From positions 1,703,483 to 1,767,482 of the forward strand of contig OZ247428.1 of NCBI GenBank assembly GCA_965232845.1: 64,000 nt of DNA. The letters run 5' to 3'. The notes under the pieces are model-generated. The model was not told the origin of the DNA and did not search any database. It saw only the letters and a list, made by a program, of their open reading frames with translations. Made by a program: the position numbers and the translations under genes. This document shows positions 7,251-56,584 of this stretch, one piece after another (position 1 is the first letter of the stretch; the number at the start of each line of letters is the position of its first letter). This DNA is from Dehalococcoidia bacterium (GTDB taxonomy: Bacteria; Chloroflexota; Dehalococcoidia; Lucifugimonadales; UBA3495).

Positions 7251-7874
7251 TTGACATCCGCAGCATTGGAACGCGCCACTTATCGAGTTTCGGACCAGGA
7301 CTTGGAGTACATGGTCCTTGACAAGGTAGATTTACCGCCAGAATTTGCGGACTATCAACAGGTAAGGGTGGGCGTTCTGGATAACGAGAACATGGCAGCC
7401 CATGGCTTTTCGGGCAGCACCGCCGCGCGATTTCGCGAAGCAGGGCGAATAACCGGCTACATGCGCGAATTCGGGCCAACGTCGGACATGAATGTCTTCG
7501 ATGGCTTCAATTTTGTGGGCTCCACCGTGGCCCACCTTTTTGACACTTCGGAGTCGGTGTCGGGCTGGATGCGCGACGTCTTTTTGAAGGACTTTGAAAG
7601 CAATGTCGGGGAGAGCGTCGGGGAAGGCCACCAGCTTATTTCCGTAGACCACCTGCAACCACAGGGCCTGTTCGACGAGGCCGTGGCGCTAAAGGCGGTG
7701 CAGGGTGGCCCGCAGGGGGTGGTTTCTTCCACGGTCATTGACTTCAGGGTCGGGCGTATCCTGGGCGTGGCCTTCGTGGGTTCAGTAGGCAACCACGACC
7801 GCCTGGACTTGACCGGGCAACTTGCCCTGGCCCTGGAAAAGAAGATAGTGCAGGTGGTGCTGGGTTCGGTTTAG
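7251..7874 (+). CDS. Hypothetical protein
   Basis: 207-aa ORF with a TTG start and coding-like composition, followed by a strong terminator. No recognisable motif. Confidence 0.4.
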   Translation: MTSAALERATYRVSDQDLEYMVLDKVDLPPEFADYQQVRVGVLDNENMAAHGFSGSTAARFREAGRITGYMREFGPTSDMNVFDGFNFVGSTVAHLFDTSESVSGWMRDVFLKDFESNVGESVGEGHQLISVDHLQPQGLFDEAVALKAVQGGPQGVVSSTVIDFRVGRILGVAFVGSVGNHDRLDLTGQLALALEKKIVQVVLGSV

Positions 7875-7885
7875 GGATACAAAAA

Positions 7886-7920
7886 GAAAGGGGCCCATAT
7901 GAGGGCCCCTTTCTCATTTA
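7886..7920 (+). terminator. Rho-independent terminator
   Basis: Perfect 11-bp stem GAAAGGGGCCC (7886-7896) / GGGCCCCTTTC (7903-7913) with a 6-nt loop, followed by a T-rich tail. Confidence 0.75.
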
Positions 7921-10873: not shown

Positions 10874-12431
10874 AGTCTCGGTCCAGGCCGGTCACGGCGT
10901 AGATGAGGTCCATATCCAGGCTGCCCCTCACCCAGTCGGCCAGCTTGTCAAACTCGCCGTCCATCGCCCCCAGCTGCGCCGCGTCAGGAAGGCTAATTCC
11001 CTTGCGACGGGCAAGTTCCCCCAGCATGGCCCGGCGGATAACGCCGTTGTGAAAAAGGCCATGAATGTAGGTGCCAAGAACTCGACCTTCGGCATCCATT
11101 GCACCATCACGGGAAGTCGCCGAAGTGACCGGGACATCGCTCCGGTCATCGATTCGGAATGGCGGTATCAGCTCCTCTCCGAAGGTCCTTCCCATGTGGA
11201 TTTCGTATCCGGTAAGCGGCGCACCGGTGGCACCCTTCAGCAATCCGGTGCCCTCAGACACTTCGCCGCGGATCCGGTGAGTTTCTTTCGAACCGGCGAA
11301 GACCGTAGTCAGAGGGAGCAGGCCCAGACCTTCCATTTCAGGAAGAGTTGACTCTATGCCTTCCGGGTCGTAAAGGTGAGTCCCCAGCATTTGGTATCCG
11401 CCGCAAATACCAATGATTGATGCCCCCTCCTGATGCCTGCGGTGTATCTCACCGGATAACCCCTGAGCTTCCAGCCAGGCCAGGTCTGGAATTGTGGTCT
11501 TGCAGCCGGGAAGGATAACGAGGTCTGGGCGGCCAAATTCTGCGGCGCTGCTCACATACCGCAGTCTTACTCCAGGTTCGCGGGCCAGCGGGTCGAAATC
11601 GTCGAAATTTGATATGTGGGGCAATTGGACTACTGCGACGTCCAATGCGGGATCGTTGCCTGCGGCGTTTGAACGAACGGGAATATCCAGTGCCACCGAG
11701 TCTTCCTCTGGAATGTGAATGTCCCGGTAGTGGTGGACCACGCCGGCTACGGGCACCCCGGTTCGTTCTTCCAACATCGTTAGCCCATCGGTGAGGAGAC
11801 TGGCGTCACCGCGAAACTTGTTGATGATAAAAGCCTTGATTATTTCCCTTTCTTCCGGCTCCAGGAGCGCCAGGGTTCCTACCAGGGCAGCGAAAACTCC
11901 TCCCCGGTCGATATCGCCGCAAAGCAGCACCGGGGCGCCCGCGTATAAAGCGACCCGCATATTAACGATTTCGGTGGCCTTGAGGTTAATTTCCGCCGGG
12001 CTGCCGGCCCCCTCGATAACCACGATGTCGTACTCGGCGCGAAGTGCGTCCAGCGAAGTATGCACCGATTCCCAGAGTTGGGCTTTAAGGGCGAAGTAGT
12101 CCCGCACCCTGGCGGAAACCATCGGCCGACCCATGCGCACAACCTGGGCGATGTGGTCAGCCTCAGGCTTTAGCAGGACGGGATTCATCTCCACCCGCGC
12201 CTCAACTCCGGCAGCTTCGGCCTGCACTGCCTGGGCCCGTCCAATTTCCCCCCCGTCTCTGGTTACGTAAGAATTATTGGACATATTCTGAGCCTTGAAT
12301 GGCGCGACTCGGAACCCGTCCTGGCGGAAAATCCGACAAAGCGCCGACACCAGAACACTCTTTCCAACATGGGATGCAGTGCCCTGGATCATGAGGACTT
12401 TGCCCAGAGGGTTAGCAGGATGGCTGGTCAA
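10854..12431 (-). CDS. cobQ: Cobyric acid synthase
   Basis: 525 aa. An N-terminal CobQ/MinD-like ATPase (GTASHVGKS) is joined to a C-terminal GATase1 domain (ICGGYQMLG...YIHG). Confidence 0.9.
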   Translation of the reverse strand: MTSHPANPLGKVLMIQGTASHVGKSVLVSALCRIFRQDGFRVAPFKAQNMSNNSYVTRDGGEIGRAQAVQAEAAGVEARVEMNPVLLKPEADHIAQVVRMGRPMVSARVRDYFALKAQLWESVHTSLDALRAEYDIVVIEGAGSPAEINLKATEIVNMRVALYAGAPVLLCGDIDRGGVFAALVGTLALLEPEEREIIKAFIINKFRGDASLLTDGLTMLEERTGVPVAGVVHHYRDIHIPEEDSVALDIPVRSNAAGNDPALDVAVVQLPHISNFDDFDPLAREPGVRLRYVSSAAEFGRPDLVILPGCKTTIPDLAWLEAQGLSGEIHRRHQEGASIIGICGGYQMLGTHLYDPEGIESTLPEMEGLGLLPLTTVFAGSKETHRIRGEVSEGTGLLKGATGAPLTGYEIHMGRTFGEELIPPFRIDDRSDVPVTSATSRDGAMDAEGRVLGTYIHGLFHNGVIRRAMLGELARRKGISLPDAAQLGAMDGEFDKLADWVRGSLDMDLIYAVTGLDRDFDRAGI

Positions 12432-48091: not shown

Positions 48092-48346
48092 AGGCAATCT
48101 CCCTTTTCTCGCGTTTAGTGGGGTCGGATATGTTGGGCAGGCTGTGTCGGCAAATTGGCCTGCCCCGCCAATCAACTAAAAGGACACGAACCGTGCCGAT
48201 TATGACCGATAGCTCAACAAAGAGGTGGGGAATTGCCTGCATTCTGTTACAAACCGCCTTTAGTGTCAAGGTTGATATCGACGCCCGCGCCGGTCCGTGA
48301 CGATGCATAAATCGCGCAGGAAACGCTGTCATCCTTCTTGTCTGGG

Positions 48347-48772
48347 CAGGGCAATCGCGTTTTAAGTTCGTGTTGATATGTGCAAGTTCTTTCTGATGGG
48401 AAAACATGTCACCCTGAGCTTGCCGAAGGGTCCAAAGTCCCGGCCAGGAGTCAGGCTCAAGACCCGAAACAAGGTTGCTGGGCTGGAGTTTAGATGCTTC
48501 GGCTTCGCTCAGCATGACAATCGTTTATGACGCGATTGCCTTGACAGGGCTAGCAGGGCAATCGCGTTTTAAGTTCGTGTTGATATGTGCAAGTTCTTTC
48601 TGATGGGAAAACATGTCACCCTGAGCATAAAACATGTCACCCTGAGCTTGCCGAAGGGTCTAAAGTCCCTGACAGGAGTCAGGCTCAAGGCCCGAAATCA
48701 GGTTGCTGGGATGGAGTTTAGATGCTTCGGCTTCGCTCAGCATGACAATCGTTTATAACGCGATTGCCTTGG
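48347..48772 (+). mobile_element. MITE-like element, copies B and C in tandem, flanked by a 9-10 bp direct repeat
   Basis: Unit B spans 48347-48543 (1 internal repeat) and unit C spans 48555-48772 (2 internal repeats). They are joined by the 11-nt spacer ACAGGGCTAGC. TTGTCTGGG occurs at 48338-48346 and again at 48773-48781. Confidence 0.85.
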
Positions 48773-48935
48773 TTGTCTGGGCGGCCCTGGTTAAAGCTCC
48801 GCCAGCTTGACGACTCTTGGGGGCAATGCTAGAATTCCGCTACGATTTCTGCTCATTTCTCATACGAATTTTTGGTCCGGGTAGTTCCTTGCGCGGCAGT
48901 ATTTTGAGCCGGAACACTCGGAAGGAGGATAGTTA

Positions 48936-50069
48936 ATGGCCCCGGAGATTATGAAAGGACTTAAGGACGTTTATCTCGATACCACCAAGTCCAGTTTCAT
49001 TGACGGTGAGGTGGGAAAGCTCCTGTATCGGGGCTACAACATTCACGACCTGGCGGAGAAATCCACCTTTGAAGAGGTCATCTACCTTCTTCTTTACGGT
49101 GATTTGCCCAGTCAGCAGCAATTAGCCGAGTTTGACAACCTCCTTCGTGCAAACAGGCGCATTCCTGACGAAGTTATCCAGGTCCTTGATCTGGTCAAGG
49201 GCAGCCACCCGATGGACGCCCTCCGCACCGGCCTCTCCGCCCTTTCGGCATTTGATCCTGAAGTAAACGACAATTCCGTGGAAGCCACTATCCGCAAGGG
49301 CATCCGCTTGACGGCCATGGGGCCGACCATCGTTGCTGCCCACCACAGGCTGCGCCAGGGACTGGAGCCTGTCGCTCCCAACCCGGACCTGAACCACGCT
49401 GGCAACTTCCTGTACATGCTGTTTGGCGAACTGCCCGATGAGGAAACAACGCGATTGCTGGATGTGGACTTCATCCTTCACGCGGAGCATGGCGCCAACG
49501 CGTCAGCATTCGCCGCCCGCGTGACTGCCTCCACCATCGCCGACCTTCACTCGGCCGTGGTCTCCGGAGTGGGAACCCTGAAGGGGCCCGCCCACGGTGG
49601 CGCCGCGGAAGAAGTGATGAAGATGTCGCTGGAGATCGGCCAGCCCGAGAACGCAGAGGAATACTGCCGGGCCAGGCTGGAAAGCGGGGGCCGGATTATG
49701 GGATTCGGCCACCGGGTTTACCGCGCCGAAGACCCCCGGGCCAGGCACCTGCGCGAGCGGGCACGGGCCCTCAGCGAAAAGATGGGCCAGCCCCACTGGT
49801 TCCAGATTCTCACCTACGTGGAAGAGGAAGCGATGGTGCCCTACCGGTCCCGGGGAATCCACGTCAACGTGGACTTCTTCGCCGGTTGCATCTACTACCT
49901 GCTGGGTATTACCGATGACCTGTTTATATCGATATTCGCCCTTGGCCGCATTCCAGGCTGGACGCTGCAATGCGTTGAGCAGTTTGACGACAATATCCTG
50001 ATCCGGCCGCTGCTTGAGTACACCGGCGAGATGGACCTGGAATATGTGCCGATAGAGCAGAGAGCCTAA
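48936..50069 (+). CDS. gltA: Citrate synthase (small, Gram-positive/archaeal type)
   Basis: 377 aa with the citrate synthase signatures LHAEHGANAS, GPAHGGAAEE and GFGHRVYRAEDPR. Confidence 0.9.
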   Translation: MAPEIMKGLKDVYLDTTKSSFIDGEVGKLLYRGYNIHDLAEKSTFEEVIYLLLYGDLPSQQQLAEFDNLLRANRRIPDEVIQVLDLVKGSHPMDALRTGLSALSAFDPEVNDNSVEATIRKGIRLTAMGPTIVAAHHRLRQGLEPVAPNPDLNHAGNFLYMLFGELPDEETTRLLDVDFILHAEHGANASAFAARVTASTIADLHSAVVSGVGTLKGPAHGGAAEEVMKMSLEIGQPENAEEYCRARLESGGRIMGFGHRVYRAEDPRARHLRERARALSEKMGQPHWFQILTYVEEEAMVPYRSRGIHVNVDFFAGCIYYLLGITDDLFISIFALGRIPGWTLQCVEQFDDNILIRPLLEYTGEMDLEYVPIEQRA

Positions 50070-50097
50070 AGGCCAAAGTTACCACCGGGCAAAAATG

Positions 50098-50130
50098 CAG
50101 GGCAGGCTTTTCGCCTGCCCTGTTTCTTTT
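50098..50130 (+). terminator. Rho-independent terminator of citrate synthase
   Basis: 10-bp stem CAGGGCAGGC/GCCTGCCCTG with a 5-nt loop, followed by TTTCTTTT. Confidence 0.8.
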
Positions 50131-50165
50131 GGGAATAATATACAATTTTACCCAAACCCCGACGT

Positions 50166-50438
50166 TCAGGTAGCGACAGGGTGGCAGGTGTCGGACCGGC
50201 CATCATAGTGCAGAACCTCCGGGTAACTGACTTCCTTATCGCAATCCACACAACGATATGGCGACCCGTCATATTCAGCGGGCTTTTCCTTCACGTACTT
50301 CCATTCGTGGTCCGGCGGCATGGCAAAGAACGCCTCGGCTATTTCGTCAGCCGTTGCGTCAATGCGCGGCGGCAACTGTTCGGGAACTGGTTTATCGCCC
50401 TGTCGGTTTCTCCTGCGTGGCAGCACGGCTATTCTCAT
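50166..50438 (-). CDS. Hypothetical small protein with Cys-x2-Cys...Cys-His knuckle (passenger gene 4)
   Basis: 90 aa with RCVDCDKEVSYPEVLHYDGRSDTCH. ATGA start/stop overlap with the upstream ORF. Its stop codon is 10 nt from the transposon IR. Confidence 0.5.
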   Translation of the reverse strand: MRIAVLPRRRNRQGDKPVPEQLPPRIDATADEIAEAFFAMPPDHEWKYVKEKPAEYDGSPYRCVDCDKEVSYPEVLHYDGRSDTCHPVAT

Positions 50439-50692
50439 TCTTCTTCGTCCAGAATTTCGACGAGCCTTTGTAGTTGGTCCTGGGTGTAGGTAGCTTTCAG
50501 GGTGGAGGCGACTTGGTGCAGGTTCTCACCCAGCACCATGCGCCGCCTCAAGTCTGCCGCCTTGATACCGGCTTCACGGGCGGCCGCGCTTACGCTGGGG
50601 AACTCCCCAGCCTGGACCCTCTCGAATATAGCCGGATGGTCCCGCTTTAGAATGCCCAATAAGTAGTCACTGCTTGTTCCTCGCGGTGCCAT
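50435..50692 (-). CDS. Hypothetical small protein, paralog of the C-terminal domain of the 211-aa ORF (passenger gene 3)
   Basis: 85 aa. GTSSDYLLGILKRDHPAIFERVQAGEFPSVSAAAREAGIK aligns with residues ~130-211 of the upstream ORF. The pattern looks like a helix-turn-helix. Confidence 0.5.
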   Translation of the reverse strand: MAPRGTSSDYLLGILKRDHPAIFERVQAGEFPSVSAAAREAGIKAADLRRRMVLGENLHQVASTLKATYTQDQLQRLVEILDEEE

Positions 50693-50694
50693 AG

Positions 50695-51330
50695 CTACTC
50701 ACCTTCCTCCGTCAAGACCTGGACGATCTCCTGCACCTGCTCCCGCGAGTAGTTGTCTTTCAGAGTCGCGGCTACCCGTTTGACGTTGTTCCCCAAGCTG
50801 ATAGTCTTTGGACCAGCCTTGACGATCCCGGCGTCCAGAGCGGCCTTCCTGACGGACTCATACTCACCGGCCAGCAACTTCTCAAAGACTTCCGGGGCGT
50901 CCCGCTGTATGCGTCCAGCCAAGTATTCCTCAGCAGTCCCGCCTTTCAGTTTTTCAAATTTATCATTATCAACTTGAAAGTCTGTGCTCCGGCGGTTCCC
51001 TCCGTGATCTCGAATCTTCCTGGCCGTCGCCGCCACTCGCTGGACCTGCATACGCTTCTGCGCCATCTTTGCGTCCCCGACTTCTAGGGCCTCCAGCATG
51101 GCCTCTTTGGAGCCGTAGGGGTTATCGTAGGGGATTTTCTCCCAAACCCGGAATTCCTCGGCGTCGGTCCACGTTCTGATATAAGTGTCGTAGCTCGTCT
51201 CCAAGCTCAACCACATCGTCTGAAGGGCGCTTATGGTCTGCCAGCACCAATCCGGTTCCCCCTTCTCCTTGAATCCCCTGGGGCCGCTGAAGCTGGCTTC
51301 GTCTTGCTCGGTGTATTGTCCGTTAAGCAT
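50695..51330 (-). CDS. Hypothetical protein with C-terminal HTH-like domain (passenger gene 2)
   Basis: 211 aa, overlapping the helicase ORF by 8 nt. Its C-terminus reads GGTAEEYLAGRIQRDAPEVFEKLLAGEYESVRKAALDAGIVK. Confidence 0.5.
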   Translation of the reverse strand: MLNGQYTEQDEASFSGPRGFKEKGEPDWCWQTISALQTMWLSLETSYDTYIRTWTDAEEFRVWEKIPYDNPYGSKEAMLEALEVGDAKMAQKRMQVQRVAATARKIRDHGGNRRSTDFQVDNDKFEKLKGGTAEEYLAGRIQRDAPEVFEKLLAGEYESVRKAALDAGIVKAGPKTISLGNNVKRVAATLKDNYSREQVQEIVQVLTEEGE

Positions 51331-53575
51331 TATCGAACCTCCCCTGTTCGCCTTCGGGTCGTGGCCCTATCGCCTTCCAGTGTTGTTCCATGTTGGCTTT
51401 CATCCAGTTCATTTCTTCCGGCGTTAGTGTTTGAATCAGGGTTTCAAACTGGGTTCCATTGCGCTTCCCTATCCTTCTGTAATGGTGGCCCCAAACGTCA
51501 TGGGTCATCACTCGCTGAAAATTGCGCCTATTCTCTTCGGATCCAGGTACATAGCGCCCATGTTTCTCTGCAAATATCACATTGCCAATCTTTTTTGCAA
51601 GTTCGGTAATATCCTTCTGCAAAGCCGACAGTTCTGCTTCCAAATTCCGGTGTGTTGTTCCTGCCGTATCGGGAGCAGGTTCCCTAACATCTTCTAGTTT
51701 TGGGACTAACCCTTTACGAAGCGCGTTCTCAACAGTCTGGGCAAAGCGCGGCTTGGTTATGGCGTTGTAAAGGTCTGGGTCCTGTCCAAATACATAGTCC
51801 GTGAAATCCACCATGTCGCCAGAGGCTTTGTTGTCGTCGCTGTCTTGGAGAATAGTAGGCGGCATTATGTCCTCCGCCTCCAGCGACGTATGGGGCGGCG
51901 GCGGATTGTGTTCTGGCTCAAAGGTCCGAAGTAGGGTTTCATCCCCTCTCTCCATGACCAAATACTCCCCACCTTGTTCCTTTATGAGGTCGTCGAACAG
52001 TTCTGTAGATAGGTAGTCCTCGGGGCTGATGTAGGTGCAATATTGTGCCAAGTCAGTAGGCTCGGGGCCATACTTCCACATTGTGCAGGGTCGAGTGATT
52101 CGCTGAATAAAGGCGTTGGCCGTCCTGATGTTGGACAAGTCCAGCTCCACTTTTAAGCTGGGAACGTCCAGGCCGCGGCCGGCCATCTGTTTCACGATGA
52201 TGACGTCGTGGTCGCCACCCACGAAAGAGTCTATGGTCCTAATGGCGTCTTCGTCATCGGAGGTAGCTATTGCGGCATTCAACCGACCATTGGACAGCCT
52301 TCGCACCGCAGATAGCACATCTTGAGCGTGTTGATTCTCCCAGGTATCCAGTTCTTGATTGTTGCTTCCCACGAAAATGATTCCTTGAGTCGCGCTGGTT
52401 CCCTCCGCCATCCGACGTTCAACCATTTCGTCAATAAAGATTCGCACGCTCCTCTCGATGATGTGGCCTTTTCGCAGTTCAGTCCGTAATACTTGACGCA
52501 CTCCGTCCTCATCGCTTTCGTCTAGCTCTGACAATTTCATTGCCCCCACAGGGTCGTCGGTGGCCTCCAAGCGTTCAGTCAGAAGTATGTCGAATTTCCG
52601 ATGGTATATCTTACAGAGAATAGGGGGGTCAGCTTCGTCCCAAACTGTCCGGAACTCTGTTAGATGGTCCGGCTGCATTTGTAGCCACTGTCGGGTCTCT
52701 TCAAACTCGCCCATCAGCCCGTTGCCCACGGGCCGGTAATATTTGCTGTCCCATGAATCGCCAAGTGGATAGACATGGAAGTTCGGTATCTGTTGGCGGT
52801 CTGTTCTAAACGGGGTAGCCGTCACCATCACCACGATGCAACCCTCTTCCTGTAGAGCAGCCAGGGTCTTCCCCCAAACACTACTCACGCTGACCGTATG
52901 ACACTCATCGAAGAAAACAACGGGTGGCACCCCGTGTATTCGCGTCATGTGTCTAACCCACTCGGAAATTGGTGAAAGACGGTTAGTAGCCATTTGAATT
53001 GTCATGCCAACCAAGTCAACATTCCGTATCGCATACGGACGGAACGGACCTGTCATAGGATATATGGCTGGTGAGTAGTCCACTACTCCGTAGCGGTCGA
53101 AAGACTCTTGCGCCTTGCCCGGGTCGAAGGCTTGGTGGAGCAGTATTCGGTCTGGCACCAATATCAGAGCAGCACTAGCCCATTTATCCCGAATCAACCG
53201 GAGGCCGCCGATCCGCATTACGTCGGTCTTGCCGACCCGTGGAGGTAGAACGAGGGACACCCCTTTTGCTCCCTCTCGGACCTTTTCGACCAATTTGTTG
53301 TAGGCTTGAAGCTGATATGTACGAAAAGCGGTTTCGTCAATATTGAAATCGTGCCGGTCGCTCATTTTGACTTCCTTTCGTAGATTGCATTTGGGACAGA
53401 GAGCTTGCATTTCAAACAGGTTTGTTCTCTGCGAAACTGACCAGGGCACGATATGGTCAGCGTGCCAATTATCGGGCAGGTCCTCGCCGCAGTGAGGACA
53501 TACCCCGTCGTTCTCGAAATACAGGTAAGCCCGCAGGTCTGGATTTCTCAAGAATCGTCCTTGTGGGCCGGCCAC
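51323..53575 (-). CDS. HNH endonuclease - SF2 (DExH) helicase fusion protein (passenger gene 1)
   Basis: 750 aa. The HNH domain reads CPHCGEDLPDNWHADHIVPWS...N...LCPKCNLRK. Helicase motifs are PPRVGKT (I), FFDECH (II), VTATP (III) and QMAGRGLD (VI). A ~250-aa C-terminal region has no recognisable motif. Confidence 0.75.
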   Translation of the reverse strand: MAGPQGRFLRNPDLRAYLYFENDGVCPHCGEDLPDNWHADHIVPWSVSQRTNLFEMQALCPKCNLRKEVKMSDRHDFNIDETAFRTYQLQAYNKLVEKVREGAKGVSLVLPPRVGKTDVMRIGGLRLIRDKWASAALILVPDRILLHQAFDPGKAQESFDRYGVVDYSPAIYPMTGPFRPYAIRNVDLVGMTIQMATNRLSPISEWVRHMTRIHGVPPVVFFDECHTVSVSSVWGKTLAALQEEGCIVVMVTATPFRTDRQQIPNFHVYPLGDSWDSKYYRPVGNGLMGEFEETRQWLQMQPDHLTEFRTVWDEADPPILCKIYHRKFDILLTERLEATDDPVGAMKLSELDESDEDGVRQVLRTELRKGHIIERSVRIFIDEMVERRMAEGTSATQGIIFVGSNNQELDTWENQHAQDVLSAVRRLSNGRLNAAIATSDDEDAIRTIDSFVGGDHDVIIVKQMAGRGLDVPSLKVELDLSNIRTANAFIQRITRPCTMWKYGPEPTDLAQYCTYISPEDYLSTELFDDLIKEQGGEYLVMERGDETLLRTFEPEHNPPPPHTSLEAEDIMPPTILQDSDDNKASGDMVDFTDYVFGQDPDLYNAITKPRFAQTVENALRKGLVPKLEDVREPAPDTAGTTHRNLEAELSALQKDITELAKKIGNVIFAEKHGRYVPGSEENRRNFQRVMTHDVWGHHYRRIGKRNGTQFETLIQTLTPEEMNWMKANMEQHWKAIGPRPEGEQGRFDNA

Positions 53576-54543
53576 TATGCCGTCCTCCCCAACCTGGTTT
53601 CTTTGGGGCCAATCAGGTCCTCGAACCGCAGTTGCTTTCCATCCCCGCCGGCCACCATAGACTCCTTCTGGTCAGCGGTGTCCAGCGGACGGCGATTGTG
53701 GCGCCCCTTAAACTCGTCAACATAGCGATGCAAGTGCTTGGGACTCATCTTGTGATAGGTTCCTGTTTGGCCCCGTTTCAGCATTGAACAAAAGCTCTCC
53801 ATCCCGTTGGTGAAGACCTGTTCTCGGACATATTCACCGATGCTATGGCGGACGGCCTCATGGCGGCGATTTAACCCGCGATAAGCGGACGCTTCATCCG
53901 TGTACACGGTTGCCCCAAACTCCGTCCCCATGTGAACAAACCCTTGGAGCGTGGAGGGTCGGCTGACTCCACTACCTCGGCCATGACCCGGTTGGTGGGC
54001 TTGTCCTTCATCCCGATTACTGCTTTCTTCCCCAAGCCCCGCGCCCAGCTCACAATTTCTGATCTGAATGCTTGTTCTTCTCCAAACCTCCCATGTAGGT
54101 TTCATCGGCCTCGACAGGCCCCGCGAAGCGGTCCGCAGTCTCGTTCCACGACTCGCGGATCCGGTGAGCCATGTGCCAAGCGGCCTTTTGAGTAATGCCA
54201 AAATCCCTGTGGAGTTTCATCGAAGAGACTCCCTTGAGACTGGTGCTATACAGGAAGAAGGCTATCGCCCACTTGGAGAGGGGAATATTGGAACTGTGCA
54301 GGAGAGAACCCGTTTTGACAGAGAAGTCCTTCCGGCAATCCCTGCAGCGGAAGGGTTATGGTTTGCGGGTGGGGTGAGCCTAGATGTTCTGGCTCTTGCA
54401 CTTTGGGCACGTTATCCCGTTGCGCCAGCGTTTCTCTATAAACCAAGCCTTGGCCTGTTCCTCGGTGCTGATGCGTTGAACAGCTTCTACGAGAGTGATA
54501 CCCTTGGGAAAGCCTTACCTGGGGCCCTTCCGGTAGAGGACAT
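53575..54543 (-). pseudogene. IS1595-family (ISXO2-like) transposase, inactivated
   Basis: Zinc ribbon CPKCKSQNI...FRCRDCRKDF, the HTH-like block KLHRDFGITQKAAWHMAHRIRE, DDE block VEADETYMGG, and a C-terminal ISXO2-like region are all recognisable. I saw in-frame TAG and TAA near 54380-54355, a TGA near 54060, and frameshifts near 54500, 54040 and 53930. Confidence 0.75.
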
Positions 54544-54731
54544 CAAAACCACCGTGTGAGTATAGTTATGCCTATAACTATACCCTTTGCCAGCTACCGG
54601 GTCAAGTAGAAAATGTCAGTGTTGGGTAAAATTGTATATAATTCCTTTTCTTCTGCTGTTCGAATCCAGTGGGAGAGAAGCCTCCAACTGGGGATTGTCC
54701 TCTCTGTATTTGGGCCCATCAGGGCTGATGC

Positions 54732-55296: not shown

Positions 55297-55481
55297 CAGG
55301 GCAATCGCATCTTAAGCGCTGCTGTCCACTAAAGCTGTAAAACATGTCACCCTGAGCTTGCCGAAGGGTCTAAAGTCCCTGACAGGAGTCAGGCTCAAGA
55401 CCCGAAACAAGGTTGCTGGGTTGGAGTTTAGATGCTTCGGCTTCGCACAGCATGACAATCGTTTATAACGCGATTGCCCTG
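55297..55481 (+). mobile_element. MITE-like element, copy D (divergent left arm)
   Basis: It has the same TIR (CAGGGCAATCGC... / ...AACGCGATTGCCCTG) and the same core as copies B and C. The first ~45 nt differ. It abuts the truncated IS630 transposase fragment. Confidence 0.8.
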
Positions 55482-55488
55482 CTAGGCA

Positions 55489-56134
55489 GTGACCAGAGCT
55501 CGTATCCTGCTGAAGACCGATGAGGGGGGGACCGCTTCCCGGGTAGCGGCTGCTTTTGACGTGTCGGAGCGCACGGTGCGCCGGGCCAAGCGCCGCTACG
55601 CGGAGGAGGAACTGGAGGAGGCGCTGCGGCACCACAACTCGCCCACACCTCACTGCAAGGTGGATGAGAAGGTGGAAGCCCACCTGATCGCCCTGGCCTG
55701 CAGCCCGGCCCCCGAGGGTCACGACCACTGGACCCTGCGGTTGCTGGCGGACAAGACGGTGGAGTTGGGCCTGGTGGAATCCCTTTCGTACGAGACGGTG
55801 CGGCTGCACCTGAAAAAACACGCTCAAGCCGTGGCTCAAGCAGCAGTGGTGCATCCCCAAGGTAGGCGCTGAGTTCGTGGCCAACATGGAGGACGTGCTA
55901 GACCTGTACGCCGAATCCTATGACCCCCAGAGGCCGGTGGTCTGCTTTGATGAGAGTTCCACCCAGTTGCTGGCCGATACCAGGGAGTCGCTACCAGCAG
56001 GGCCTGGGCGACCGAGACGGGAGGACTACGAGTACGTGAGGGCTGGCACCCGCAACCTGTTTCTCACCTGTGAGCCCAAGGCGGGCTGGCGCCACGTGGC
56101 CGTCACCCAGCGGCGAACCATTCAAAGTTTGTAA
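55489..56134 (+). pseudogene. IS630-family transposase fragment (both ends missing, frameshifted)
   Basis: RARILLKTDEGG...HWTLRLLADK...ETVRLHLKK continues in the +1 frame as TLKPWLKQQWCIPKVGAEFVANMEDVLDLY...VCFDESS. The break is at CTGAAAAAAC (~55812). The N-terminal ~40 aa and the whole DDE C-terminal half are absent. Confidence 0.75.
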
Positions 56135-56509: not shown

Positions 56510-56584
56510 TGGAGCGGCAGATGGGATTCGAACCCACGACCCTCTCCTTGGCAAGGAGATGCTCTACCACTGAGCCACTGCCGC
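56510..56584 (-). tRNA. tRNA-Gly (anticodon GCC)
   Basis: The minus strand reads GCGGCAGTGGCTCAGTGGTAGAGCATCTCCTTGCCAAGGAGAGGGTCGTGGGTTCGAATCCCATCTGCCGCTCCA. It folds as a cloverleaf with a 7-bp acceptor stem and anticodon loop TTGCCAA. The CCA end is encoded. Confidence 0.9.

Follow-up and report, generated by a model that had tools for sequence, protein, structure and literature searches.

Siguier, Gagnevin and Chandler reportedly described in 2009 members of the IS1595 family of insertion sequences (ISs) that carry passenger genes. The family is recognised by its zinc-finger transposase, GG-tipped repeats and 8-bp duplications, and it contains several subgroups including ISNwi1 (PMC8101967); IS elements with passenger genes in general are designated tIS (PMC7986276). 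Furuta, Abe and Kobayashi (2010, PMC2853133) documented restriction-modification genes with IS elements on their flanks, or with flanking inverted repeats and 8-bp duplications. They also noted insertions flanked by direct repeats of more than 30 bp ('insertion with long target duplication') and cited the IS1595 paper for IS-linked restriction-modification (PMC2853133). In this study, we analysed a 64,000-nt stretch of Dehalococcoidia bacterium contig OZ247428.1 (the 64-kb window), in which positions 50131-54646 hold a locus of 4516 bp resembling these units. All coordinates are positions within the window unless a compared locus from another genome or contig, given an L-number, is named. We are nearly certain that the locus is a single passenger-carrying transposon (tIS) of the IS1595 family. 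Our proposal as a whole, which we hold at roughly even odds (about 0.5), is that it is a dead tIS retaining a selected nuclease-helicase pair, named here hel750 and p211, that acts as a restriction-like defence or exclusion module. On the minus strand, the order is left repeat, internal promoter, transposase, cargo slot, p90 and right repeat, with the following features.

54622 to 54646, no strand: transposase-side terminal inverted repeat (IRL), outermost base mutated
54577 to 54605, minus strand: candidate sigma-70-like promoter, TTGACC-17-TATAGT (10/12), just inside IRL
53575 to 54543, minus strand: IS1595-family transposase pseudogene with 3 in-frame stops and 3 frameshifts, its C-terminus native to the stop codon
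51323 to 53575, minus strand: hel750, 750 aa, with an N-terminal HNH domain, a superfamily 2 (SF2) DExH core and a C-terminal beta-rich and helical region
50695 to 51330, minus strand: p211, the helicase partner, 211 aa, all-helical, two domains
50435 to 50692, minus strand: p85, a passenger gene, 85 aa, stand-alone paralogue of the p211 C-terminal helical (helix-turn-helix-like) domain
50166 to 50438, minus strand: p90, small basic zinc-ribbon protein, 90 aa, conserved accessory open reading frame (ORF) of the IS clade
50131 to 50155, no strand: transposase-distal terminal inverted repeat (IRR), GGGAATAATATACAATTTTACCCAA; the ends are 25-26 nt long

The longest frame piece of the transposase matched Pfam DDE_Tnp_IS1595 (PF12762) with E=1e-21, and the gene, of the IS1595/ISXO2 type, contains a VEADETYMGG block. 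From the ATG at 54543, its frame is broken by stops at 54382-54380, 54358-54356 and 54052-54050 and by frameshifts near 54510, near 54030 and at about 53955-53913, in agreement with the initial annotation, a reading of the bare sequence that had taken the repeat-proximal ORF for a disrupted IS1595/ISXO2-like transposase. Intact relatives of the reconstructed protein, 310-325 aa long, number in the thousands. P0097 (320 aa, 77% identity to the reconstruction), the closest of them, scored 181 bits against NCBIfam transpos_IS1595 (cut-off 75), and the native C-terminus was kept in the window (...LIGPKETRLGRTA, compared with ...LIGPKETRLPKGA in P0097). In addition, the outermost base of IRL is A, against G in relatives, and p90 reads DGRSDTCH against DGRCxxCH in relatives, so that one conserved zinc-ligand cysteine is lost. 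With a dead transposase, a mutated IRL tip and the loss of this zinc ligand, the transposition apparatus looks decayed in every part, and the window element is immobile now.

The cargo has not shared this decay. Disabling lesions number 6 in about 970 nt of transposase and 0 in the 3410 nt of coding sequence downstream. In an equal-decay calculation with 5 lesions per 986 nt, the cargo as a whole should have collected about 17 lesions (P ~3e-8), and hel750 with p211 about 15 (P ~5e-7); P becomes smaller still because the later count gave 6 lesions, not 5. The comparison of hel750 with its homologue at L001, where the nucleotide identity to the window cargo is 75%, gave a pN of 0.106, a pS of 0.661 and a dN/dS of 0.07 over 597 codons. 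For p211 compared with L002, dN/dS was 0.055 with dS near saturation. Taken together, these data indicate that the pair is under strong purifying selection, independent of its vehicle, as had been supposed from the sequence when the cargo was first noted to be intact.

The functional unit is the two-gene pair hel750 and p211. hel750 matched the Pfam domains HNH (1.8e-8), ResIII (1.1e-10) and Helicase_C (3.9e-4). The HNH domain at about residues 26-68 is intact (CxxC..HADH..N..CxxCN) and also matches PHROG 'endonuclease VII' families. The motor motifs are intact too, namely Walker A GK115-116, DECH 223-226 and motif VI, and across 42 homologues GK115-116, DE223-224, T252/T254 and the motif VI residues are invariant. 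Foldseek of hel750, whose AlphaFold2 (AF2) model has a pLDDT of 87, returned generic SF2 DNA motors, with RadD and XPB on top and with Chd1, EcoR124I HsdR (TM 0.39-0.40), EcoP15I Res and LlaBIII among the others. The C-terminal third (about residues 500-750) has no recognisable family match, and a PDB sequence search with hel750 found only a DEAD-box C-domain (E=0.0045). For p211, 21 homologues share the invariant motifs WCWQT..LQ..W and RI.RD.P..E...GE..S...AA..AGI; its AF2 model has a pLDDT of 77, and Foldseek against the viral library matched it to no more than three Caudovirales proteins, all uncharacterised and about as long. In viral contigs L107, L108, L110, L113, L114, L116, L117 and L121, the HNH and helicase parts stand in separate adjacent frames, which could be split genes or sequencing frameshifts.

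The window element is one of a large clade of transposons with GGGAATTATATAC ends, and carriage of cargo is the rule among them. Scanning metagenome contigs with the transposase profile yielded 80 additional loci, and 31 loci with both ends located at ≤3 mismatches were taken as complete relatives. Their ends start with GGG(A/G)ATTATA and their lengths range from 1477 to 4120 bp; only 2 are shorter than 1.6 kb, while the 29 longer than 2 kb contain cargo. A perfect 8-bp direct repeat was found directly outside the ends in 20 of the 29 relatives with testable flanks. A 2624-bp element with an MT-A70 methyltransferase and a BglII-like endonuclease is identical at L020 (7909-10532) and L021 (242-2865) and is bordered there by different, perfect 8-bp duplications (AAAAATTT and TTAAATTT); the same element at two sites indicates that whole units transpose. 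L015 has ends 24/26 identical to those of the window and an intact transposase with 68% identity, and its 3056 bp also encode a Dam-like methyltransferase and a 163-aa product, followed last by a small ORF homologous to p90. The initial reading of one IS1595-type transposon with passengers thus holds, on the strength of L015 and of the relatives with perfect duplications; an intact transposase (L015) and clean 8-bp target-site duplications (20/29), the features that it had proposed to look for in further copies, were found in these relatives.

The larger passenger proteins of 17 relatives were scanned for cargo typing. Methylation or restriction genes were detected in 14 of them and a KilA-N protein in 1, and 2 gave no match. 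The cargo types of the clade include type IIG-like N6_Mtase/Eco57I, N6_Mtase with Methylase_S, an N6_N4_Mtase-Mrr_cat fusion, Dam and D12, and in four elements (L048, L055, L056 and L070) an N6_N4 DNA methyltransferase is fused to a C-terminal HNH nuclease in a single protein. The HNH-SF2 helicase pair was absent from all 31 complete relatives. The 22-nt tip GGAATNATATACAATTTTACCC occurs at nine places in a one-genome-per-species collection, in metagenome-assembled genomes of Dehalococcoidia, Alphaproteobacteria, Binatia, Opitutales, Marinacidobacterales (Acidobacteriota) and one unclassified bacterium; these six host lineages indicate that this type of element moves between phyla. The window tip GGGAATTAT and the length of 4516 bp would presumably fit ISNwi1 or 'ISNwi1+', for which we take the ISfinder figures to be an end of 'ggnnatTAT' and 1750-4750 bp.

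Some loci of the clade deserve mention in their own right. At L015 (2255-7905), the Dam-carrying relative lies directly after TerB_N/TerB/TerB_C, BrxC/BrxD-like ATPase and DEAD helicase genes, a trio resembling a Shango-type defence system. At L006 (2842-4942), L008 (937-960), L011 and L012 (6226-6249), small genes of other kinds follow the 22-nt tip and no IS1595 transposase lies nearby; at L011, two such ends (7448-7472 and 7891-7915) face each other 418 nt apart. These may be derivatives without a transposase, or 8-kb loci that were merely cut. A weak transposase match in L006 was rejected as a relative of the window IS, because it comes from a different IS1595 member, bounded by 43-nt ends of its own, that has inserted beside the shared tip. 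At L010 (1781-3073), a relative of the window transposase (50% identity over the first 165 residues) behind the same end is interrupted by a transposase-like gene, which by eye appears IS256-like.

We defined the pair as an HNH-SF2 helicase gene with a p211-like gene for about 185-250 aa immediately downstream, the two usually overlapping. This pairing holds in the window, L001-L004, L016, L017, L098-L101, 17 of 22 viral loci and the cultured Saccharomonospora phage PIS 136. It is obligate, as the partner is adjacent downstream even at 28% helicase identity, and both genes are conserved across 28-82% identity; the partner profile comparison gave E=1.7e-34 for L100 and 5.7e-60 for L098. The copies at L002/L003 (helicase 62% identity) adjoin a type III-like restriction cluster and a PIN gene, and PIN and type IIG restriction genes are near the copy at L004 (50%). 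L016 and L017 (39% and 34%) are intact stand-alone chromosomal copies between metabolic genes, with no mobile-element genes nearby. L098/L099 have 35% helicase identity, and at L100/L101 (28%) the pair stands behind Prim-Pol, a DnaC-like loader and DnaB.

The pair is also found in viruses, as the 17 of 22 loci are IMG/VR contigs encoding a relative of the helicase. Among its neighbours in these contigs are RecT, a DUF3799 exonuclease, methyltransferases of the Dam and N6_N4 types, a MobA relaxase and integrases. Over phages and plasmids together, the neighbours also include a DUF3799/PD-(D/E)xK exonuclease, a YqaJ-type 'phage type endonuclease' and VRR-NUC. In phage PIS 136, both genes are in the DNA-metabolism region, and distant relatives of the helicase occur on Streptomyces plasmids. 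Moreover, at L004 (7723-11830), L098 (5934-9745) and L099 (29-3840), the pair is followed by an overlapping, co-oriented IS6-family transposase (NCBIfam transpos_IS6, 125.5 and 130.2 bits, cut-off 125; L004 and L098/L099 transposases 49% identical). Inverted repeats of 24 nt bracket exactly these three genes, and when the ends are read as GGTTCTC... and GGCTTCG..., a perfect 8-bp duplication (GGTAGTCC and CATAGCGG) borders each element. This shows that the same pair is carried by two unrelated transposon families. In a review of the IS6 family, only ISDsp3 was listed as a passenger-carrying member, and the family makes cointegrates with no known resolvase (PMC7986276).

The copies at L001, L002, L016 and L017 were searched for an IS1595 end (≤8 mismatches), which was not found, and for inverted or direct repeats, of which only a 56-nt repeat in L001 was detected. 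We nevertheless rejected the notion that the L001 and L002 copies are independent of any IS. Upstream of the helicase, L001 and L002 retain the last codons of the transposase (KETRLG; RYEALVEPKETRL), the aligned remnants being EQRYEALVEPKETRLGPVA and a stop in L002, TKETRLG in L001 and KQLRFEDLIGPKETRLGRTA and a stop in the window. Downstream, they retain the 5' part of p85, namely TTVPRGTSTEYL in L001 and MVPRRTCCEYLL..LKRDHPDIA in L002, compared with MAPRGTSSDYLLGILKRDHPAIF in the window. It follows from these shared remnants that the order transposase, helicase, p211, p85 is ancestral to the window, L001 and L002/L003, and L001 and L002 are trimmed derivatives. The L001 block lies between obg and nadD and is bordered at 7857-7912 and 10900-10955 by direct copies of 56 nt from the obg 3' end (55/56 identical), and both of its genes look frameshifted in what is a long-read contig. 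An IS1595 transposase does not make such a structure, which resembles the 'insertion with long target duplication' of PMC2853133.

From these results, we propose the following course of events. The element landed in the T-tract that follows the terminator hairpin of citrate synthase, presumably duplicating 8 bp of target, and later lost its mobility. Transcription would start at the IRL promoter and pass through the dead transposase. By translational coupling, hel750 and p211 would be made together and may act as a complex, in which p211, perhaps with p85, could provide DNA binding or control. The hel750 motor is predicted to track along DNA using ATP while the HNH domain cuts, and the target would be incoming or competing foreign DNA. 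The benefit from defence, or else an addictive effect, would keep the genes intact past the death of their vehicle. We put a restriction-like defence or exclusion role for the pair slightly below an even chance, and we prefer it because the same slot holds restriction or methylation genes in the sister elements, because the chromosomal copies stand among defence genes or alone, and because the genes outlive the transposon.

Several findings weigh against this reading. The module has no methyltransferase or other component for telling self from non-self. p211 has no Pfam, NCBIfam or PDB match by sequence profile or Foldseek and no recognisable fold. In PADLOC-DB v2.0.0, hel750 gave weak generic matches only, namely PbeA (E=1.3e-4, helicase C-domain only), REase_II (1.2e-3) and PtuB (HNH, 2.5e-3). 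The position of the pair among replication and recombination genes in 17 of 22 viral contigs, PIS 136 and L100 fits DNA processing at least as well as defence. As dS is near saturation, the dN/dS values average the whole history of the genes and not just the time since the transposase died. Finally, an empty insertion site was sought to prove the duplication and none was recovered (no exact-sequence record of citrate synthase or of the helicase). The initial annotation had sensed in the cargo the flavour of a nuclease-helicase defence or mobile-element maintenance module; the defence half of this is something that we infer, with no PADLOC match to lean on and with the pair found also in DNA-metabolism regions of phages and plasmids. 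Its statement that the cargo could not be assigned to any named system was right. PADLOC-DB gave no match for p211, p85 or p90; Pfam, NCBIfam and PHROGs gave generic domains only for the helicase and none for p211 or p85; and in the literature on HNH/SF2-helicase defence no named system was found to fit.

The strongest competing explanation, which we nevertheless regard as unlikely, is that the pair serves the DNA metabolism of the mobile element itself. hel750 would then be a branch-migration motor joined to an endonuclease VII-like junction cutter, with p211 as its DNA-binding partner, for example in resolving IS6-type cointegrates or in the recombination-dependent replication forks of phages. 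The neighbours in phages and plasmids (RecT, exonucleases, DnaB, the DnaC-like loader, Prim-Pol and VRR-NUC) are those expected from it, as are the repair helicases RadD and XPB as top structural matches, the match of the HNH domain to endonuclease VII families and the tight linkage to cointegrate-forming IS6 transposases. It is more difficult to reconcile with a pair kept intact by purifying selection in an immobile transposon and with the intact stand-alone chromosomal copies at L016 and L017. Furthermore, the sister IS1595 elements transpose without the pair, which is therefore not needed for IS1595 transposition.

A second alternative bears on the small partner genes. p85 is 45% identical to residues 131-209 of p211 and 35-46% identical to all family members. 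Since it is about equally distant from all of them, a recent internal duplication of p211 was rejected, and p85 appears to be an old paralogue of the p211 C-terminal domain. In a toxin-antitoxin-like addiction module, hel750 would be a DNA-damaging toxin restrained by p211 and p85, so that loss of the element kills the cell and the genes persist without benefit to the host. The tight gene coupling with its 8-nt overlap, the small helix-turn-helix-like partner that always follows the nuclease and the extra copy of the partner C-domain in p85 are consistent with such a module. Restriction-modification systems, which are said in published work to be able to act as addiction modules, occupy the same cargo slot in the sister elements. 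However, Pfam, PADLOC and NCBIfam gave no match to known toxin-antitoxin families, and the deep conservation (28-82%) with all ATPase motifs kept means more machinery than a toxin needs. The frameshifts in both genes of L001, if they are real and not long-read errors, indicate that loss is tolerated. We consider addiction quite improbable.

The ends of the element are embedded in the following host features.

48936 to 50069: citrate synthase, the host gene preceding the element (Pfam Citrate_synt, E=1.9e-124)
50097 to 50123, plus strand: intrinsic terminator hairpin of citrate synthase from a terminator scan, 11-bp stem with 8 GC pairs, T-tract after it
50123 to 50130, no strand: left copy of the candidate 8-bp target-site duplication, TTTCTTTT
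54647 to 54654, no strand: right copy of the candidate 8-bp target-site duplication, TTTCTTCT

Positions 50132-50155 are identical to the reverse complement of 54622-54645 at 23 of 24 positions, or 24 of 25 with the outer base, and these two are the only copies of the repeat in the window at ≤3 mismatches (0.00 expected from 100 shuffles). Between them lie five co-oriented ORFs on the minus strand. The transposase and hel750 meet at TAG/GTG sharing base 53575, p211 and p85 are separated by 2 nt (50693-50694), p85 and p90 join at ATGA (50435-50438), and 10 nt separate the last stop (50166) from the repeat edge (50155). The insertion point is the T-tract of the citrate synthase terminator, within the interval between citrate synthase and PNPOx. 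On all of this, the initial annotation was accurate: the 24-bp inverted repeat, the bracketing of exactly five ORFs, which the ORF list supports, every junction coordinate, including the hel750/p211 overlap at 51323-51330, and the terminator location, now backed by Pfam and the terminator scan. The candidate duplication agrees at 7 of 8 positions in T-rich DNA, also as it had stated, and lies directly outside the GGG tip. Its judgement of 'weak' was too cautious, since the same register gives a perfect 8 bp in 20/29 related elements. The promoter-like site inside IRL probably drives the whole operon, and a comparable TTGAC..-10 layout is present inside the left end of L014 and L015.

That the locus is not one transposon, being either a chromosomal cluster bracketed by unrelated IS ends or cargo inserted later by its own mechanism, is very improbable: the L001 obg repeat means that the block can also move by a non-IS1595 route and the duplication is only 7/8 in T-rich DNA, but the repeat has just two copies in 64 kb and these are correctly oriented towards each other, the transposase at one end and p90 at the other are arranged as in L014, L015, L058, L076 and L124, the duplication is in the register of the family, and the L001/L002 remnants make the gene order ancestral.

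The family of p90 comprises 63 cluster representatives at E≤1e-3, with the motif GRP..PPRIDATPE.IA.A.F...CxxC...CxxCH and a basic N-terminus. Homologues lie just inside IRR in L014 (49% identity), L015, L058, L076, which is a minimal element of 1477 bp, and L124 (55%), whose transposase is the closest; in L019, L039, L060 and L083, they follow the transposase immediately. In at least 15 of 30 elements, a shorter ORF with the core [ST]PE.[LI]A[KR]A terminates beside the right repeat. The positions of the homologues give a clade layout of IRL, transposase, variable cargo, small accessory ORF and IRR, and they show that p90 is a conserved accessory gene of the clade and not cargo. To our knowledge, a small ORF next to IRR has not been a described feature of the IS1595 family. 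The count of four intact passenger genes in the initial annotation was therefore right in that four ORFs are uninterrupted, but the passengers are three only (hel750, p211 and p85). As for the findings that it had named as contrary to its reading, none was obtained: the pair also occurs outside phage and plasmid replication modules, repeats of this kind bound homologous elements elsewhere, and the cargo does not evolve neutrally.

The transposon is located in a small hotspot of mobile DNA. Three copies of a short repeat of about 150-200 nt (92-100% identical), at 48346-48548, 48553-48776 and 55339-55486, flank the citrate synthase/transposon/PNPOx block on both sides and may represent a small non-autonomous repeat element. 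An HTH_32/HTH_29/HTH_23 protein fragment at 55489-56134 (plus strand) and a short ORF at 56510-56584 (minus strand) resemble a truncated IS630-type transposase, just past which lies a tRNA-Gly(gcc) gene.

The new points of this study are the cargo-rich GGGAATTATATAC clade, p90 as its accessory gene and the HNH-SF2 helicase with p211 as the true cargo. If the proposal is true, an uncharacterised nuclease-helicase pair whose partner has no recognisable fold becomes a small (2.9 kb), clonable candidate for defence or DNA processing, for which the dead vehicle with live cargo, the two transposon families and the phage copies serve as natural 'experiments'. One IS1595 clade would then commonly carry methyltransferases and restriction systems across phyla, which bears on the spread of defence and epigenetic genes without phages or plasmids, and the pair-carrying IS6 elements would add passenger members where only one was listed. 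Passenger-gene transposons and mobile restriction systems are already known, and the basic concepts are unchanged; the value lies mainly in a candidate module that is well defined and in the evidence that an IS1595 shuttle takes restriction-type cargo across phyla. A wider idea, which we consider doubtful, is that the pair is an undescribed two-component DNA-conflict system for mobile elements, captured independently by IS1595, IS6, phages and plasmids, that restricts competing DNA or resolves the element's own intermediates, and that the clade is a cross-phylum restriction/defence shuttle with a p90-family accessory.

Compared with described IS1595 tIS, the window element shares a zinc ribbon and DDE_Tnp_IS1595 transposase, short repeats starting with GG, the 8-bp duplications of its relatives and internal passengers, but its transposase is a pseudogene and its cargo is an HNH-SF2 helicase pair. 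The L004 and L098/L099 elements resemble the IS6-family tIS in their IS6 transposase, short GG-starting repeats and perfect 8-bp duplications; they differ in having the helicase-p211 pair upstream of the transposase, and this vehicle is unlike the IS1595 vehicle of the window. The clade also recalls the IS-carried restriction-modification units, as the corresponding slot of sister elements is occupied by restriction-modification systems, either complete or partial, whereas the window cargo contains no methyltransferase or restriction-enzyme family beyond generic domains.

The ATP-dependent restriction motor-nucleases (HsdR, type III Res and type ISP) are similar to hel750 in the fusion of a nuclease to an SF2 motor, the C-terminal region, the ResIII match and the EcoR124I/EcoP15I/LlaBIII folds. 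On the other hand, the nuclease of hel750 is an N-terminal HNH domain and not PD-(D/E)xK or PLD, and its helical partner is novel. There is no Mod, HsdM or HsdS partner as in the type I and III systems, and the structural similarity is limited to the motor. Against the NCBIfam restriction families, hel750 scored 15-17 bits where the cut-offs are 550-610 (EcoAI R 15.5 against 550). With no methyltransferase and with scores so far below the cut-offs, the pair is not a type I or III restriction-modification system. From its model, hel750 may work like a motor-nuclease restriction subunit without belonging to those families. SauUSI-like type IV enzymes likewise combine, in a single chain, a nuclease, an SF2 motor and a C-terminal recognition domain.

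Nuclease-helicase anti-phage systems include Cas3, Druantia DruE, Zorya ZorD, Hachiman, Gabija, Nhi and Hna. The pair is like them in the joining of an ATP motor to a nuclease, in its carriage by mobile elements and in the nearby defence genes; it differs in lacking a PADLOC match beyond generic domains and in having the obligate p211, which is specific to the hel750 family. In T4, the UvsW helicase and endonuclease VII form a phage recombination and junction pair. RadD/XPB-type helicases acting with junction nucleases are comparable in their folds, RadD and XPB being the best matches, in the endonuclease VII PHROG matches and in the RecT and exonuclease neighbours. Unlike such systems, hel750 has its nuclease and motor fused in one protein, and the pair persists outside phages and active transposons.

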